DNA from: an uncultured Spirochaetia bacterium
GTDB taxonomy: Bacteria; Spirochaetota; CALGPD01
Reading direction: 5' to 3'
Length of the DNA: 62,293 nt
Assembly: GCA_964449345.1 (NCBI GenBank)
Contig: CAYUYT010000001.1
Location: 1 to 62,293 of the forward strand
The translations under genes and the position numbers were made by a program. Within the stretch, counting starts at the first letter, position 1; each line of letters starts with the position of its first letter. The notes below the pieces were generated by a model. That model ran no database searches. It had not been told where the DNA came from and saw only the letters and a program-made list of their open reading frames with translations. Positions 2,958 to 23,559 of this stretch are shown here, one piece after another.

Positions 2958-3542
2958 ATGAATAAAAAATCTAAAATAGAACGAAAAACAAAAGAAACAC
3001 AAATTAATCTTGAGCTAGTTTTGCAAAGTGAAGAGGATTCAAAAATAGACACAGGCATTGCATTTTTTGATCATATGCTTTCACACATTGCTAAACACGG
3101 GAATATGCAAATTAAAATTCAGGTTAAAGGTGATATTGCAGTTGATTTTCACCACACTGTTGAAGATACGGGCATTGTTTTCGGACAGGCCCTAAATCAG
3201 GCAATCGGTGATAAAAAAGGAATTAACCGTTACGGTTATGCTAGTATTCCTATGGACGAAACACTTGCAAACATTTCACTTGACATCAGCGGAAGAAGCG
3301 TTTTGGTATATAACGTAAAATATACGGGGGAAAAAATAGGCGATTTTAATACGGAACTCGTTAAAGAGTTTCTACGCGCTTTTTCTCAGCATGCCGGCTT
3401 AAACCTTCACGTTAACGTTCCCTACGGGGAAAACAACCACCACGTTGCCGAAGCAATTTTTAAAGCTTTAGGTAAGGCTTTAAGCTTAGCAGTTGCAGAT
3501 TCAGGGCTTAAGGGAATTCCATCAACAAAAGGCACTTTATGA
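2958..3542 (+). CDS. hisB: Imidazoleglycerol-phosphate dehydratase
   Basis: N-terminus IERKTKETQINLEL, plus FFDHMLSHIAKHG and HHVAEAIFKALG, matches IGPD. Length is 194 aa. Confidence 0.92.
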   Translation: MNKKSKIERKTKETQINLELVLQSEEDSKIDTGIAFFDHMLSHIAKHGNMQIKIQVKGDIAVDFHHTVEDTGIVFGQALNQAIGDKKGINRYGYASIPMDETLANISLDISGRSVLVYNVKYTGEKIGDFNTELVKEFLRAFSQHAGLNLHVNVPYGENNHHVAEAIFKALGKALSLAVADSGLKGIPSTKGTL

Positions 3543-4648
3543 GCAACATAAAAGACATTTATTACAACAAGAATGTAGGTACATTCCCCGAATCCTTTGA
3601 ATTTAACAACGTAAAATTCAAAAAAAAACACGATTTGCGCTACGGAACAAACCCGCATCAACCTGCGGCAATTTATGAACCGGAGAATTATTTAGGTATT
3701 TTAGGTAGTTATAAAATTTTAAAACAAGGCAAATCAGGATTATCTCAAACAAACGTGGAAGACATCAACCACGCCGCAATGATATTACGCTTTTTTGAAA
3801 CGCCTTCATGTGCTGTAATGAAACACCTTAATCCTAGCGGAGTTGCTTGTTCAAGACATTTTGACGAACCTTTATCAACCGTATATTATCGCGCAAGGGA
3901 CTGCGACGCTAGGGCTGCATTTGGCAGTACGGTTGTATTTAACACTTCCGTTGACGAAGATACAGCAGAAGAAATAATGCAAAGCGTTGTTGAAAACGTA
4001 GTTGCACCGGATTTTACCAAAAATGCGCTCACAATTTTAAAGGATTATGATAAATTCAAACGAAATAAACAAATGCGCGTAATTAAAATCGGAGAGATTG
4101 CAAGCCTTCCAAAATATGTTGGAGATAATTTTAAATATGAGATAAAAGCTCTTGGAGACGGTAGCTTAATTATATCCGCTCCATATTTAACAGGAATTAG
4201 AAATACAGATGATTTAATACGTCCACAAGCAACGGATAAAAACGACAACGCTATTACAATGAAACATACCCCAGAAGAAAGTGTAAAAACGGATTTATTA
4301 TTTGCATGGTACGTTTGCGCAGGTGTTAGAAGCAATTCAGTCGTAATTGCAAAAGATTGCGTTACTCTTGCAATAGGAACAGGTGAGCAGGATAGGGTTG
4401 GCGCAGTAACACAGGCAATTGATAAAGCAAAACAGAAATTTAAGGGTAGCGAAACGCTAGACGGCGCGACAATTGCAAGCGATGGTTTTTTTCCGTTTAG
4501 TGATTCCATTAATTTAATTGCAGATGCCGGCATAAAAGCCGTTATTCAACCCGGAGGCAGTGTTCGAGATTATGAAGTTATCAAAAAGTGCAATGAACGC
4601 AATCTTGTAATGTATTTTACAGGAGAACGCTGCTTTGCGCATCATTAA
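3539..4648 (+). CDS. Stand-alone AICAR transformylase domain protein (PurH-like, no MGS/IMP-cyclohydrolase domain)
   Basis: The protein begins at the AICARFT entry motif LRYGTNPHQPAA. It carries MKHLNPSG (the catalytic K-H), AAFGSTVVFN, GTGEQDRVGAV and the C-terminal ASDGFFPF...IQPGGSVRD...FTGERCFAHH. At 369 aa it has no room for the N-terminal IMPCH domain. The ATG overlaps the hisB TGA (ATGA at 3539-3542). Confidence 0.8.
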   Translation: MSNIKDIYYNKNVGTFPESFEFNNVKFKKKHDLRYGTNPHQPAAIYEPENYLGILGSYKILKQGKSGLSQTNVEDINHAAMILRFFETPSCAVMKHLNPSGVACSRHFDEPLSTVYYRARDCDARAAFGSTVVFNTSVDEDTAEEIMQSVVENVVAPDFTKNALTILKDYDKFKRNKQMRVIKIGEIASLPKYVGDNFKYEIKALGDGSLIISAPYLTGIRNTDDLIRPQATDKNDNAITMKHTPEESVKTDLLFAWYVCAGVRSNSVVIAKDCVTLAIGTGEQDRVGAVTQAIDKAKQKFKGSETLDGATIASDGFFPFSDSINLIADAGIKAVIQPGGSVRDYEVIKKCNERNLVMYFTGERCFAHH

Positions 4649-4735
4649 GGCGTTTATAAAAATTTCAACTTTTCAGTTTTTGAATTTCAATAAAACACGT
4701 TCATTTCAATCATATTTTTAGTTGGTTAGGCAATA

Positions 4736-5281
4736 TTATTTATCTCGCATTAAATTTTTGCTGATTCTTACATTTTCCAAGAAGCGTTTATTTAGTTCAC
4801 GCGGGAACCCTTTTTTTAGTGCGGAATAAAAAGACCCTGATACTTTTTCTATTTGCGGTGCAATTTTTGATTTTTTAATAGCACCGGTAACCCCTCCAAA
4901 AGGAATCATTCGAAGACCAAGTAATAAGAGAGCGCAAATTAAAATCGCTTTAACCCCTCCGATAACAGCGCCGCCTAAACTGTCAAGCCAGCCCAAATAT
5001 ATCATTTCAAGAAATTTTTTTATGCTCAAGCCAATTCGCCTTATTATTATATTGAGGATTATAAAACATCCGGCAAAACATACAATTACAGCTAGTTTTT
5101 CATTTTGCATATATTTATTTATATACGGTGCAATATGTGGGTTAATTTTAATTGCGAGGGCAAAAGAAACAATAATGGCGAGGATACCGAAAACTTCTCC
5201 GGTAAAACCTTTCCTAAAACTTTTGAAAATAAATACTGCAGCAATAATAAGTATAATTATATCAATGTAATTTAGCCCCAA
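4736..5281 (-). CDS. cvpA: CvpA-family membrane protein
   Basis: N-terminus NYIDIIILIIAAVFIFKSFRKGFTGEVF followed by 4 hydrophobic segments is the typical colicin V production protein architecture. Confidence 0.7.
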   Translation of the reverse strand: MGLNYIDIIILIIAAVFIFKSFRKGFTGEVFGILAIIVSFALAIKINPHIAPYINKYMQNEKLAVIVCFAGCFIILNIIIRRIGLSIKKFLEMIYLGWLDSLGGAVIGGVKAILICALLLLGLRMIPFGGVTGAIKKSKIAPQIEKVSGSFYSALKKGFPRELNKRFLENVRISKNLMRDK

Positions 5282-18267: not shown

Positions 18268-18666
18268 TTAATCAAGTTCCCCTGAATCTTCCAATTCATC
18301 AAGATAATCATTCATTTCTTCGATATCTTCCGTATATAAAACGTCGCAATCTTCACAGACTTTTTTATGAAGCTTCCATAACCAATGATGCGCATTATCC
18401 TGTTTATGAGGAGAGATAACGCATTCAGGGTCACTTAAATCCATAAAGTCTTTAATTTTATCAACCATATTATCTATGTATTCATCGTATTCTTCATGAA
18501 CGCCTTTGATCCTCCTTGCGCTTCGTAAAACTTCACGAAAATAGACTTTCTCCTTGCCTGATTTTGTGGTTTGTAAAATAGTTATGCCTTCTTTAAAATT
18601 ATGATTAAGCTCGTTAAATTGTCTTAGAGTCTCGATATTACAAAAAGGATTGGCTTTTTTTGGCAT
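18268..18666 (-). CDS. Hypothetical acidic-tailed protein
   Basis: 132-aa ORF with GGAGG upstream (reverse complement of cctcc at 18674-18678) and C-terminus DDYLDELEDSGELD. It is divergent from 18807. I recognise no family. Confidence 0.45.
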   Translation of the reverse strand: MPKKANPFCNIETLRQFNELNHNFKEGITILQTTKSGKEKVYFREVLRSARRIKGVHEEYDEYIDNMVDKIKDFMDLSDPECVISPHKQDNAHHWLWKLHKKVCEDCDVLYTEDIEEMNDYLDELEDSGELD

Positions 18667-18806: not shown

Positions 18807-19646
18807 ATGTTTAGTGAAAAAACCATATTGATTTTTTCAGGGTTACTGGAAAATATAAATAACGCAGAAGAATTGGCGAAAATTGCAAAATCAATTTCCC
18901 CGGAAATAGTATCTGAAAAAATAAATGACGTAAAAGGAATAACGGATTATTTTTTTAAAAAAAACCGTATTTATGACTGGATTAATTCGGTTTTAAACAG
19001 GATTGGCTCTGCAAATATTTACGGAATCAGACAATTTCTTCAGGAACTTGAAAATGATAAATTGTTTTATAACCATGAAACAAAGTGCATTGAAACTTTC
19101 AGCCGGGAAAAACATAACTGCCCTAACTGGGGATTGTTTGGCGAAGGAGACAAAGTTTTCGTTTGCATGGCAAGAATAAAACTAACGGAAAAAAAAGAAA
19201 AGCAAATCGATTTAAATAACGCTTTTTACAATTTCGTATCGCCAAAAATAAAGTCATTTAACGGCAGGATATGGAATTTCAACAAAGGCAATTTTACAGC
19301 GGGGTTTTTTCCGGGCAATAAAACAGATGCCTGTATTGAAACAGCAATTGACATTCTATTAAATATGCCCGTTTTCAACAACTGGTATTCTCCGGCACAG
19401 GATAACGTTAACGTTAGAATATCATGCGTAGCGGATTTCGTTAATTATACAAATATAACGAAAAACATTTTCGGTCCGGCTGTGGGAATGATTAATTTAC
19501 TTGAGGACAGAATGGAAGATAATACAATATTGATACATGAAAATTTGTTAAATCAACTTTTACCGGCTAAGCAAAAAGCTTTTCAAAACAACGGACGAAT
19601 AGGCGATGAAAAATTATTTAATTTTTTTTGTGAAATAGGTAAATAG
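18807..19646 (+). CDS. Hypothetical protein with degenerate class III cyclase-like (CHD) C-terminal domain
   Basis: Residues ~115-265 follow the CHD pattern by eye. VFVCMARIKL stands for LFaDIvGF, NGRIWNFNKGNFTAGFF for GxxiKtiGDaymavF, VNVRISCVADFV for lxlRIGIhtGpV, and FGPAVGMINLLEDRMEDNTILIHENL for GDtVNlAsRLEslAepgxIlvSe. Both metal-binding Asp positions appear substituted. Confidence 0.45.
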   Translation: MFSEKTILIFSGLLENINNAEELAKIAKSISPEIVSEKINDVKGITDYFFKKNRIYDWINSVLNRIGSANIYGIRQFLQELENDKLFYNHETKCIETFSREKHNCPNWGLFGEGDKVFVCMARIKLTEKKEKQIDLNNAFYNFVSPKIKSFNGRIWNFNKGNFTAGFFPGNKTDACIETAIDILLNMPVFNNWYSPAQDNVNVRISCVADFVNYTNITKNIFGPAVGMINLLEDRMEDNTILIHENLLNQLLPAKQKAFQNNGRIGDEKLFNFFCEIGK

Positions 19647-20885
19647 ATGAAAACTATTCAAACTTTAATATATTCTACCAATAGAAACCTTATACATAAA
19701 ATTCAAAGCGCACTTGAAATTGTGCCTGCTAAATATGCAGGAGATTTTCGTTTTAATTTAATTTTTGAAGACGATATAAGAAAATTTCAATTGCGTTTGA
19801 ACGAAAATATATTAGATTTGTACATTATTGAACATGACGCGGCTTTGTCTCAAGGGTTCAAAGCTCTGGATATACTTAAAAAACAACGAGAAACAAAACC
19901 TGACTTTCTAGAAAACGCAAAAATAATTTTCATCGGCCCGGATGATGCTAAAACCGTTGTAAAAGCTTATGAAAACGCGTTTTTAAGCGGATATGAAATC
20001 ATGAAGGATTTAAAATCGGAAAATTTCGCAGCTAAAACAATTGATAAATATTTCATACAACAACCTAACCAAACAGTTAATAAAAAAGAAGAAAGCCTGG
20101 ATAAAAACAAAAAAGCAAAACAAACCGGAAATGAACAGATTTTCGATGAGTTGCTTTTATTATTAACGGGCAACTACGTTGATATTGCTGAAAATTTAAA
20201 AAAAGCAGTTTATGAAAAAAAAGAGCTAGAACAAAACGCAAAAAAATTGAGTAAGGAAATAGAAGATTTAAAATTAGCGTACAAACAAAACGAAATAGCT
20301 AAAATCGAGAATATCAAACCGGCAAAACAGAACATGGAAGATTGGCCTTTTAAAAATGAAAATGGTAAATCTTTAGAACAAAAAATGTTTTTTTTAGATA
20401 TTCGAATTTTTATTAATCCGGGAATTAAGCAAGTTTATTTGCGTTATGAAATTCAAATACTTTTGGATTTGATATATAGATTTTTCAATTCTCATTTTCA
20501 GCATTATGAACACGTTACCCTGCTGTCAAATACGGATAGGGTCTTATGCGTATTTAATTCAAGTAACGCAATTAAATGCGCCCTTGAAATAATTATTGAA
20601 CTCGCAAAAATTAATTATACCGAAAACGCGATTTTAAAAAACTTTAAATTTAATATGGGAATAGATTTTCACGATGTAAAAAATGCCCATAACGCAGGGG
20701 ATATTTTAAAAAAAGCCGATTTGAAAACAATTGAAAAAATATTAAACAATGTCAAACCGGCAAACACTTTATATGTAACAGGGGAAGTTTATAATACCCT
20801 TGGGGAAAAAATAAAAAAGTTTTTTAAATATCACAAAAAATCAAAAAATCTTAGCTTCTATTCTTATTACGCTGTATATGGTTAA
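19647..20885 (+). CDS. Hypothetical protein: pseudo-receiver-like N-terminus, coiled coil, degenerate class III cyclase-like C-terminus
   Basis: The ATG directly abuts the stop of 18807-19646. The N-terminus has DLYIIEHD...KIIFIGPDD in a receiver-like layout without the acidic DD pair. The C-terminus has MFFLDIRIF (D251), SNTDRVLCVF (D297), NAIKCALEIIIEL, FKFNMGIDFHDV and PANTLYVTGEVYNTL. Confidence 0.45.
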   Translation: MKTIQTLIYSTNRNLIHKIQSALEIVPAKYAGDFRFNLIFEDDIRKFQLRLNENILDLYIIEHDAALSQGFKALDILKKQRETKPDFLENAKIIFIGPDDAKTVVKAYENAFLSGYEIMKDLKSENFAAKTIDKYFIQQPNQTVNKKEESLDKNKKAKQTGNEQIFDELLLLLTGNYVDIAENLKKAVYEKKELEQNAKKLSKEIEDLKLAYKQNEIAKIENIKPAKQNMEDWPFKNENGKSLEQKMFFLDIRIFINPGIKQVYLRYEIQILLDLIYRFFNSHFQHYEHVTLLSNTDRVLCVFNSSNAIKCALEIIIELAKINYTENAILKNFKFNMGIDFHDVKNAHNAGDILKKADLKTIEKILNNVKPANTLYVTGEVYNTLGEKIKKFFKYHKKSKNLSFYSYYAVYG

Positions 20886-21260
20886 TTTGCCGTTATTTTA
20901 AATCATTAAACGTAACGCTATCACCGTTATTCCACTTTCGAATTTCAACCATACCACAGTAATATGTAGGTTTTGTAAAATACTAAATCAAAATCCAAAA
21001 TGTATTTTTTAATAAAATTTTCACTTTCATATTAAATTATTTTACAAAAAAAATGCAGTGTGATAGTTTTTTGCTATTTTGTAAACTGTAATTTATTAAA
21101 TAGATGTAAGTTAGAAAGACAAATTCGGATGATTTTATAAATTTAAATTTTCACCTTTAAAAAATAAAATATGGCGTTTTATTACTATTGTGTGTAAAAT
21201 TCTACTCACAAAATATTATTACGGTTGCCGTTTACATTCCTTATATTTATACTCATATTT

Positions 21261-22547
21261 ATGGAAATTGCGTTAATAGAAATTAAAAAAGCCGGAGACA
21301 ACAAGGATTATAATGCCGGTTTCGGAACGACTTTTAATTTAAAAACAACGCCTTTAACCTTTGTTTTAAAAAAAACCAGAAAACATTTAGAAAAATTTCC
21401 TACTATTTCTTATGCTTATATTTCAGCAATATTTAAAAAATTTAATCACGTTGTTAATTACTATCAAAACGCGTTGCCTATTGATTGTTCCTTAGCACTA
21501 TTAAACGTAACGGCAATACGGCATAAACAAGAAATACAAATAATTAACGAAATAAAACGCAAAAAAAAATATAAAATCGGGGTTTACGGCGCTTTGGCAA
21601 CTGTTATGCCTGAATTGTTTAAAAACGTTGATTTTATAATCACGGGGGAACCGGAAAACGCTGTATTTAGCATAGCAAAAACGGGAAAAATACCACAAGG
21701 AATAGTTAAATCTTTATATGTAGAGGAATTAGACTCCTTGCCCTTTCCCGACTGGGATATATTTGATGTAAAAAAATTTTCCTATTCGCCTTTGCTTACG
21801 TATAAACCCTTTTTATTTATGCAAAGTTCTCGCGGGTGCAAATTTTCTTGCTCATATTGCCCGCATCGGTTAAACGGTAAATACCGTAAACGCAGTATTC
21901 AAAACGTATTAGATGAAATGCTATATTTAAAAGAAAAATACAGGGTTAAGGGAATACATTTCAGGGACTCATACTTTAATTTTAACGAAAACGAGGCGCA
22001 GGAATTTCTTAGCGAAATGATTAAACGCCGCCTTGATATTAAATGGGGAATGGAAACAAGGATAGATTCTTTAAATACAAAACTCGTTGATATTTTGTAT
22101 GATGCCGGGTTGCGCGCTGTAAAAACAGGCATTGAAAGTTCAGATATGAAATTGCTCGAAAAATTTAACAGAATGTCTCCTGATTTGGAGCACGCAAAAA
22201 ATGTAATCCGGTATTGCAACGGAAAAAAGATCAAATCCAACGCTTGTTATATCTTAGGTTTTCCTTCACAGGATAAAACCTTGCTTAAAAAAACGCTTGA
22301 TTTATCTTTTGAAATAAAATCAACTTTTGCGAATTTTTTCATTCTAACGCCTTTGCCCGGCACTAATTTTGACACCATTTTTGATTTGGAAATAACGGAT
22401 GAAAACTTAAACCATAGGGACAATTTTCACCTTGTTTTTAAACATGAAAATTTTACAAATAAGGAACTTAGAAAAATTCAGGCAAACTTTATTTCACGTT
22501 ATTATTTTCGTTATTCGTGGATTAAAAATTATGTAAAAATAAAATAA
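21261..22547 (+). CDS. B12-binding-domain radical SAM protein
   Basis: The CX3CX2C cluster is SSRGCKFSCSYCPH, preceded by a Rossmann-like segment (KIGVYGALATVMPELFKNVDFIITGEPE). I prefer ATG 21261 (MEIALIEI) over the TTG at 21225 listed in the ORF track. Confidence 0.75.
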   Translation: MEIALIEIKKAGDNKDYNAGFGTTFNLKTTPLTFVLKKTRKHLEKFPTISYAYISAIFKKFNHVVNYYQNALPIDCSLALLNVTAIRHKQEIQIINEIKRKKKYKIGVYGALATVMPELFKNVDFIITGEPENAVFSIAKTGKIPQGIVKSLYVEELDSLPFPDWDIFDVKKFSYSPLLTYKPFLFMQSSRGCKFSCSYCPHRLNGKYRKRSIQNVLDEMLYLKEKYRVKGIHFRDSYFNFNENEAQEFLSEMIKRRLDIKWGMETRIDSLNTKLVDILYDAGLRAVKTGIESSDMKLLEKFNRMSPDLEHAKNVIRYCNGKKIKSNACYILGFPSQDKTLLKKTLDLSFEIKSTFANFFILTPLPGTNFDTIFDLEITDENLNHRDNFHLVFKHENFTNKELRKIQANFISRYYFRYSWIKNYVKIK

Positions 22548-22617
22548 AATTTTTAAAAAAAACAAACCATTTTTTCGTTTTAAGTGTTAGAATACATAAC
22601 ACGGCAGGAGCATTTTT

Positions 22618-23559
22618 ATCCGTACTACTACAAACAAATACATATTTTTAATAATAGCAATTATTTTCTGTTTTGCCTCTGTTAGCGCTCATGCAAAGTA
22701 TGCCAATCCCGGCGTTGCAAATGATAAAAGCTATGATTTTGATAAATATTATAAAGATAATAATTTTAGTTTTAAAAATTACTCAAGAACCGGCCGCCAA
22801 CCTCAAAAATTTGCTCTGGTTATCGGTCAGAATAACTACAAAAAACGCCCTTTAAAAACGTGTGTAAACGATGCAAAAGCAATGACAAGAGTATTTAAAA
22901 CGAGTTTATTCGTACCCGAAAAAAACATAAGATTATTTTTAAACGAAAGCGCAAGCAAAAACCGAATAATCAGGGCTTTTAAGTCCCTTGCTAGGGTAAC
23001 AAAACCCGGTGATAAAGTATTTTTTTATTACTCCGGGCACGGAATAAGAACGTATGACGACTTAAAAGGAGAAAAAAGCACAAGTTTACTCCTTTCAACA
23101 GGAGAAAAAATTAGCGCAAGGCTTTTCGGGAATATGGTTAAAAAAATTAAAGCGTTATCCGTATCCTTTTTAGACAGTTGTCATTCAGGCGGTATGATTT
23201 CACAGGATTTTATATTCAACGTAAAAAAAATATCTAACCCCGTTGTAAACCGCAGGGCTTATTTCGTTGCATCGAGCAAGTCCGAAGAAACGTCAATGAC
23301 TATTCCTCTTTATAAACACAGCAGATTTACATATTTTCTAAGCCGGGCAATTTTGAGAAACAGAGCAGATTTAAATAAAGACGGGAAACTCAGTTTACAG
23401 GAAGTTTTTAGCTGGAGCAAAAAACAAACCCTGCTTTTCGGAGAAAAATACGGAGCTTTGCATAATCCCGTTATTTACGGCAAAAACCCGTCTTCAGTAA
23501 TATTGAACGAAAAAACCAAAAGAGATTTACCTTCAAATCCTGAAGATTTTTCAGCATAA
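22618..23559 (+). CDS. Secreted caspase-like (peptidase C14) protein with EF-hand-like loop; proposed ATC start
   Basis: The catalytic dyad motifs are FFYYSGHG and LDSCHSGG, and the domain entry FALVIGQNNYKKRPLKTCVNDAKAM lies upstream of the listed ATG (22882). The frame is open from 22600 and encodes RTTTNKYIFLIIAIIFCFASVSAHA with no ATG, GTG or TTG. AGGAG (22606-22610) sits 7 nt before ATC 22618. DLNKDGKLSLQE (23368-23403) fits the DxNxDGxLxxxE Ca-binding loop. Confidence 0.7.
   Translation: MRTTTNKYIFLIIAIIFCFASVSAHAKYANPGVANDKSYDFDKYYKDNNFSFKNYSRTGRQPQKFALVIGQNNYKKRPLKTCVNDAKAMTRVFKTSLFVPEKNIRLFLNESASKNRIIRAFKSLARVTKPGDKVFFYYSGHGIRTYDDLKGEKSTSLLLSTGEKISARLFGNMVKKIKALSVSFLDSCHSGGMISQDFIFNVKKISNPVVNRRAYFVASSKSEETSMTIPLYKHSRFTYFLSRAILRNRADLNKDGKLSLQEVFSWSKKQTLLFGEKYGALHNPVIYGKNPSSVILNEKTKRDLPSNPEDFSA

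Follow-up and report, generated by a model that had tools for sequence, protein, structure and literature searches.

Class III nucleotide cyclases are among the best-understood signalling enzymes. Mammalian adenylyl cyclases (AC), with their C1 and C2 domains, and the alpha/beta soluble guanylyl cyclases (sGC) keep one complete composite site, to which one half contributes Asp/Asp and its partner Asn/Arg. Bacterial class III cyclases, in contrast to this arrangement, are known as symmetric homodimers that have two sites and complete residue sets (PMC9433096). Here we analyse two abutting genes, P1 and P2, at positions 18,807 to 20,885 of a 62,293-nucleotide stretch of an uncultured Spirochaetia bacterium (assembly GCA_964449345.1, contig CAYUYT010000001.1), which we call the window. 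The pair is a degenerate variant, newly found here, of a split cyclase pair of Spirochaetota whose upstream gene type (A) encodes a helical N-domain and a cyclase core, and whose downstream type (B) encodes a receiver and a cyclase core. Neither this spirochaete pair nor any bacterial pseudo-cyclase pair was found described in the literature searched.

The two open reading frames (ORFs) lie on the forward strand in the same frame, and the TAG of P1 is directly followed by the ATG of P2, as a sequence-only reading of this DNA had reported. P2 runs from a (beta-alpha)5 pseudo-receiver-like domain through a disordered linker and a long helix to its cyclase-homology domain. The features of the pair are as follows.

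18807-19646, forward strand: P1 gene, 279 aa plus TAG, of A-type architecture, with a helical N-domain and then a cyclase-homology domain (ORF list)
18807-19106, forward strand: N-terminal helical domain of P1, approximately residues 1-100, common to the A-type family (AlphaFold2, AF2; hhalign over residues 4-100)
19128-19643, forward strand: cyclase-homology domain of P1, residues 108-279 (alignments, Foldseek)
19644-19649, forward strand: TAG-ATG junction, where the P1 stop abuts the P2 start in the same frame
19647-20885, forward strand: P2 gene, 412 aa plus stop (ORF list, AF2, hhalign)
19647-20057, forward strand: N-terminal (beta-alpha)5 domain of P2, residues 1-137 (AF2 topology)
20175-20297, forward strand: long helix of P2, a putative coiled coil, residues 177-217 (AF2)
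20379-20882, forward strand: cyclase-homology domain of P2, residues 245-412 (hmmalign, hhalign, MAFFT)

Natural fusion of the two proteins by read-through of the TAG was considered and ruled out: orthologues end in TAA, or in TAG plus an extra codon.

When P1 and P2 were searched directly against Pfam, NCBIfam and PDB sequences there was no match, and PF00211 (Guanylate_cyc) was absent from the Pfam hmmscan at E<=10, in line with the earlier impression that no annotated family is recognisable for either protein. Their relationships are visible in profiles. The P1 family aligns with the A-type family over its whole length (hhalign 99.7%, E 1.2e-25), and the A-type hidden Markov model scores P1 at 97.6 bits (E 2.4e-28). 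P2 aligns with the A-type family over residues 167-408 (hhalign 97.3%, E 2.4e-11) and with the B-type family over residues 246-408 (93.4%, E 2.6e-7), and has PycC as a weak direct match (E 0.002). Because a direct hhalign comparison of the P1 and P2 families returned no match, the two are joined only via the A/B family. The A-type profile in turn matches solved class III cyclases (3mr7, E 1.5e-9; Ma1120, E 6.5e-8; also CyaB and Rv1900c), and a paralogue from P1’s own genome clears the gathering score of PF00211 (28.2 versus 21.9 bits).

The predicted fold agrees. P1 and P2 were modelled with AF2 as one chain from a paired alignment of 44 rows, the in-frame stop being read as Gly as a modelling device, and the resulting model has a mean predicted local distance difference test score (pLDDT) of 80.5 and a predicted template-modelling score (pTM) of 0.64. 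P1 is predicted to consist of a helical N-domain (helices within residues 4-83, pLDDT 75-90) and an alpha/beta core. Foldseek against the PDB returned class III cyclases without exception among the top 50 matches. Single-domain cyclases matched with template-modelling (TM) scores of 0.73-0.77 and a root-mean-square deviation of about 3 Å, in an output that is silent on which core, P1 or P2, produced each match. Two-domain cyclases align to the model over 640-780 columns; AC9 and the soluble adenylyl cyclase sAC span both cores, and the best match of all is AC9 (6r3q_A, E 2.6e-12, both cores covered). The sequence-only reading had proposed cyclase-like C-termini, with the lack of a profile or structural match as the observation that would count against it; significant matches were found, and both ~170-aa C-terminal segments are cyclase-homology domains by profile-profile comparison and predicted fold. 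Two other assignments were tried and rejected. A GGDEF diguanylate cyclase finds no Pfam GGDEF match and none of the 50 top Foldseek matches, and for a known defence system the PADLOC matches are merely generic or weak.

What family did the pair come from? P1 has paralogues in its own genome, and six-frame searches of related genomes recovered relatives of ~307 aa from many genomes across the phylum, mostly in tandem with a ~323-aa gene. In a sample of the best 80 of 318 confirmed parent-family loci, an A gene is directly followed by a B gene in 51, and the others are solo A genes. The A-B junction has a gap of 0 in 11 and an overlap in 17 of the 41 pairs examined (28/41). Paired A proteins keep both metal-binding Asp residues (the second, Asp2, is D in 16/16 rows) but have not kept Asn and His in the ‘SDxINxxxHLE’ block; B-type proteins keep Asn (41/41 rows) and His (41/41 rows) and not the Asp residues; solo A proteins keep all four catalytic positions. 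The spacing between the two Asp columns is 44 in this family, and the conserved Lys at the substrate column is absent from the A/B family overall. The N-terminus of the B-type is a genuine receiver (Pfam, 30.9 bits; profile versus PDB receivers, E 3.8e-6). Judged by its conserved residues, the parent pair splits its active site as animal C1/C2 does, with A giving Asp/Asp and B giving Asn/His.

Some variation within the parent family was also apparent. The first-Asp column of B-type rows is Glu (‘IELD’) in 29/41 (canonical pairs L035-L113), and the B-type receiver is atypical in that its Thr/Ser column is Asp in 28/41 rows and that it has an invariant ‘DY’. At one locus (L041), two A-type genes in tandem (2992-3915 and 4004-4927, both on the forward strand) replace the A-B pair.

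The P1/P2 locus shares with the Spirochaetota A/B pair its gene order, its abutting or overlapping junctions, the full A-type architecture of P1 and a downstream, N-terminally extended partner, P2, whose core is compatible with B-type ancestry. It differs in that P1 lacks the A-type Asp pair and P2 lacks the B-type Asn and His, the sequence of the P2 N-domain no longer identifies it as a receiver, P2 has an additional disordered linker and long helix, and the neighbourhood is different (radical SAM and 132-aa genes). Mammalian AC C1/C2 and sGC alpha/beta have the same fold and likewise two diverged cores meant to pair, whereas P1 and P2 are separate polypeptides from coupled genes, with neither half complete. 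The bacterial homodimeric class III cyclases (Ma1120, Rv1900c, CyaB and M. tuberculosis Cya) have the same catalytic fold and are matched by the parent-family profile at E 1e-9 to 1e-5, but P1 and P2 lack their residue set and fall below the PF00211 threshold.

In P1, the Asp columns are occupied by K125 (19179-19181, the first, Asp1) and G161 (19287-19289, Asp2), which upholds the earlier suggestion that both metal-binding Asp residues have been lost. Across four P1 sequences the Asp1 column reads K, K, K, E and the Asp2 column G, G, G, N. The Asn column holds G227 (19485-19487), the Arg/His column L231 (19497-19499), and the substrate-specifying Lys (or Glu) column, four residues before Asp2, N157. 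The block ‘GPAVGMINLLEDR’, which had been thought to keep an Asn and an Arg, is indeed the homologue of GDxVNxAxRLE; its catalytic columns are those held by G227 and L231. The residues put forward in their place, N230 and R235, are off-register by -1 and +4 from the Arg/His column and are D and Y in the L114 orthologue, and they do not qualify as the Asn/Arg of P1. The P1 family has instead its own invariant motif, ‘GPAVGM’.

In P2, the Asp1 column is occupied by an invariant Arg, R253 (20403-20405), with D251 (20397-20399) at i-2. On this register hmmalign, hhalign and MAFFT agree, pairing ‘FLDIRIF’ of P2 with ‘FLRIDIV’ of the paired A proteins. The family spacing of 44 is that of R253-D297 and not of D251-D297 (46), which favours the same register, and in the models R253 sits at residue 9/12 of beta1 and D251 at 7/12, the Asp of the A control being at 10/11. 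Alignments and models favour R253, not D251, as the occupant of the canonical Asp1 column. The Asp2 column is D297 (20535-20537), which reads D, D, K, N among four P2-family sequences. The metal-binding Asp pair attributed to P2 holds up in part: D251 and D297 exist and are 46 residues apart, but the alignments place D251 outside the Asp1 column, and D297 varies among the relatives of P2. The proposed loss of Asn/Arg in P2 is confirmed, the columns holding K360 (20724-20726, Asn) and K364 (20736-20738, His/Arg), and the substrate-Lys column is L293. D251 is itself invariant in the four P2-family sequences, and the family carries the invariant motifs ‘[LM]D[IV]RI..N’ and ‘CALEI’. Neither the P1 nor the P2 family has the two metal-binding Asp residues as a conserved pair, and the transition-state Asn and Arg of the GDxVNxAxR block are found in neither P1 nor P2.

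The beta1 strand of P2 reads F-L-D-I-R-I where half of the paired A proteins (e.g. L059) have F-L-R-I-D-I. Asp and Arg thus appear to have traded places on one face of the strand, and both P2 residues (20397-20405) are invariant in the P2 family.

The sequence-only reading had also seen a pseudo-receiver-like N-terminus and a coiled coil in P2. The AF2 model does give a (beta-alpha)5 pattern, over residues 282-417 of the fused chain (pLDDT 80-93) and with a topology that fits a receiver, and a 41-residue helix (fused residues 457-497), but the sequence similarity to receivers is not significant. No match to the Pfam receiver PF00072 or to PDB receivers was found for this N-terminus, and its co-linear alignment with the B-type N-terminal profile is weak in hhalign (E 0.0095, 4% probability). 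The dipeptide H63-D64 (19833-19838) is invariant and aligns by MAFFT with the phospho-acceptor Asp column of the B-type. Of the receiver signatures, P2 keeps the Asp64 column alone: S10-T11-N12 replace the acidic pair, G97 replaces the Thr/Ser, and the Lys is absent. The linker directly before the long helix (residues 140-176) is Lys/Glu-rich and disordered, with pLDDT <50 over fused residues 420-455.

The P1/P2 pair is rare, with representatives in this genus and in two or three lineages from metagenomes. From 5.8 billion proteins, a word-indexed search recovered one orthologous pair (P1 70%, P2 49% identity) and one more P1 orthologue (58%), HMMER with the P2 alignment over 1.84 billion cluster representatives found three members, and metagenome scans with the P2-family and P1-family alignments yielded no additional loci. 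In a sample of 401 Spirochaetota genomes, only that of the window (G000) and a congener (G001) have full-length genes of both the P1 and the P2 type. Four lineages of P1 and four of P2 have intact ORFs. P2 shows 49%, 33% and 25% identity to its relatives. P1 and P2 are adjacent in 3/3 lineages with visible context (the window, G001/L017 and L114/L115). Independent occurrence of the two genes had been named as a sign against partnership; they are never separate in assessable loci, which supports their linkage. Pairwise ratios of non-synonymous to synonymous substitution (dN/dS) of 0.15-0.36 for P1 and 0.23-0.30 for P2, which are rough as dS is saturated, indicate purifying selection.

On a tree of cyclase cores, P1 and P2 each form a long-branched clade (Shimodaira-Hasegawa-like approximate likelihood-ratio test 99 and 98), and P2 groups with two divergent B-type proteins. 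Approximately unbiased (AU) tests reject a placement of P2 with the paired A proteins (p 0.0002) and reject neither its placement with the B-types (p 0.23) nor that with P1 (p 0.29). For the origin of P1, the AU tests are confounded by non-monophyletic comparison groups and long branches. P1 is A-type by architecture, and P2 is most likely a B-type derivative, exact branching aside.

The genome of the window contains further members of the family, and no canonical A-B tandem was found in it. Three solo A-type paralogues occur, L019 (C3:24030-25037, reverse strand), L020 (C366:148-1089, forward strand) and L022 (C211:5913-6677, reverse strand). Where they can be aligned, they keep Asp, Asp and Asn, with His replacing Arg. 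They are candidates for active, homodimeric cyclases in which the His is unusual. The copy on C3 clears the PF00211 threshold. There is also a solo B-type gene (C59:14995-16032, reverse strand), which encodes a genuine-looking receiver and a core with Asn/His and without both Asp residues; no A-type gene adjoins it, and it grouped with P2 on the tree.

Several genes flank the pair.

18268-18666, reverse strand: 132-aa gene, transcribed divergently from P1, with no family match, co-conserved with the pair
21225-22547, forward strand: B12-binding-type radical SAM gene, downstream of the pair and co-conserved with it (PF04055, 55 bits)
22600-23559, forward strand: caspase (Peptidase_C14) gene, the domain match beginning at residue 72 of the frame that opens at 22600

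The 132-aa gene adjoins P1 in every lineage that shows that flank (L017, L018 and L115), and its product, with 86-88% identity and a dN/dS of about 0.05, is far more conserved than P1 and P2. The radical SAM protein resembles HpnJ/BchE, scoring far below their cut-offs, and shares 49% identity with the product of the gene that follows the P2 relative in L114. Since the alignment with this L114 homologue begins at Met13, its true start is probably at 21261 rather than at the TTG at 21225. The radical SAM, 132-aa and caspase-like neighbours occur only beside P1/P2-type loci and at none of the canonical loci fetched. The Peptidase_C14 match starts upstream of an ATG at 22882. No terminator-like site was found before 23688 in the window.

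So, are P1 and P2 still a cyclase? With slightly better than even confidence, we lean towards the pair being a rare, fast-evolving offshoot of the split cyclase that forms a non-catalytic heterodimer with a regulatory or sensing role. The ancestor would have been a two-gene split cyclase, its A protein carrying both metal-binding Asp residues and its B protein, for the other half-site, Asn and His. In a single composite site, loss of one essential residue frees the remaining ones from selection, and every hallmark catalytic position appears to have drifted in both partners, leaving a composite site that, from its residues, is most likely dead as a nucleotide cyclase. P1 and P2 may still assemble, non-catalytically, via the cyclase-type dimer interface, the pseudo-receiver and long helix of P2 could act as input or oligomerisation elements, and output might take the form of contact with another protein, the co-conserved radical SAM enzyme being one possibility. 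Given that the hallmark residues are gone yet the genes are coupled, conserved and marked by new invariant motifs, a pseudo-enzyme heterodimer fits better than an active cyclase, partnership with other paralogues, or relics. The sequence-only interpretation survives in its outline, a degenerate class III pair from coupled genes of a two-gene, heterodimer-type lineage, and loses its C1/C2-like division of labour. It had assigned Asp/Asp to P2 and Asn/Arg to P1, the opposite of the parent polarity (upstream A Asp/Asp, downstream B Asn/His), and each partner has in fact lost its own hallmarks. Its other option, a pure pseudo-enzyme scaffold, fits the evidence better. A more specific proposal, that the pair is a pseudo-cyclase heterodimer whose pocket is kept as a non-turnover ligand sensor, or rebuilt with migrated residues (D251 at i-2), and which controls the B12-type radical SAM enzyme, we regard as a long shot.

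Several points weigh against a non-catalytic heterodimer. Pseudo-enzymes called from sequence at times prove active through migrated residues, and D251 and D297 could still bind metal in this genus if the beta1 register departs from the alignments. Our only grounds for inferring heterodimerisation are the coupling of the genes and the homology of the proteins with obligate dimers. The fused P1+P2 model superposes on sAC by a single core (TM 0.28), and the P1 and P2 cores are not jointly superposed on sAC or AC9; a canonical A/B control behaves alike (0.28-0.31 against sAC), so that this is no negative result for P1/P2. The saturation of dS also tempers the case for purifying selection, and in G001 P2 and the radical SAM gene are separated by a gene on the reverse strand, so that the radical SAM link may be mere synteny.

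One alternative is partnership elsewhere in the genome. Class III cores dimerise via a conserved interface (PMC9433096), and P1 and P2 could pair chiefly not with each other but, as non-productive (‘poison’ or regulatory) subunits, with the solo A-type paralogues on C3, C366 and C211, which have a complete residue set, and with the solo B-type on C59 (Asn/His, no Asp). All four are in the same genome, in which no canonical A-B tandem was found. We consider this unlikely: strict adjacency, stop-start coupling and a shared narrow distribution point to mutual partnership, and the long branches of P1 and P2 suggest joint divergence from the other paralogues. Quite improbable, in our judgement, is an active heterodimeric cyclase whose single composite site would take its metal ligands from P2 (D251 and/or D297) and substitute transition-state residues, such as R123, K125, R154, R204 or R235, from P1. 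The parent family is built for such complementation, D251 is invariant in its family, both the window and G001 have D297, and P1 keeps both the Arg of the RIGIH block (R204) and, as ‘GPAVGM’, the shape of the GDxVN loop. Yet such an enzyme would have to work with an invariant Arg in the Asp1 column of P2, with a D297 that becomes K or N in P2 relatives, with catalytic columns that hold neither Asn nor Arg/His in either protein, with P1 N230 and R235 off-register and unconserved, without Lys in the substrate column (P1 N157, P2 L293), and with a polarity reversed relative to the parent pair. That P1 and P2 are decaying, functionless relics of a split cyclase pair would agree with the loss of every hallmark catalytic residue and with the fast evolution of P2 (49%, 33% and 25% identity). 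This is very improbable in view of full-length intact ORFs in several lineages at 25-70% identity, dN/dS well below 1, conserved gene order, and the invariant motifs newly acquired by P1 (‘GPAVGM’) and P2 (‘[LM]D[IV]RI..N’ and ‘CALEI’).

For annotation, the locus carries a caution: a motif recognised by eye can miss the catalytic column by two residues, as did ‘FLDIRIF’ when set against the FADIxGF block. For the family, the split A/B pair already hints that bacteria have a counterpart to the animal C1/C2 heterodimer. P1/P2 would be the next evolutionary step, with the catalytic residues gone from both halves and coupling, conservation and synteny retained. Should the pair indeed form a heterodimer without catalysis, it would show in nature how a pseudo-enzyme evolves from an obligate heterodimer, in which one half-site dies and the other is released, and it would offer a handle on the non-catalytic roles of cyclase scaffolds. 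Should it also control the radical SAM enzyme, as in the more specific proposal, a class III scaffold would have passed from making second messengers to regulating an enzyme directly by allostery.

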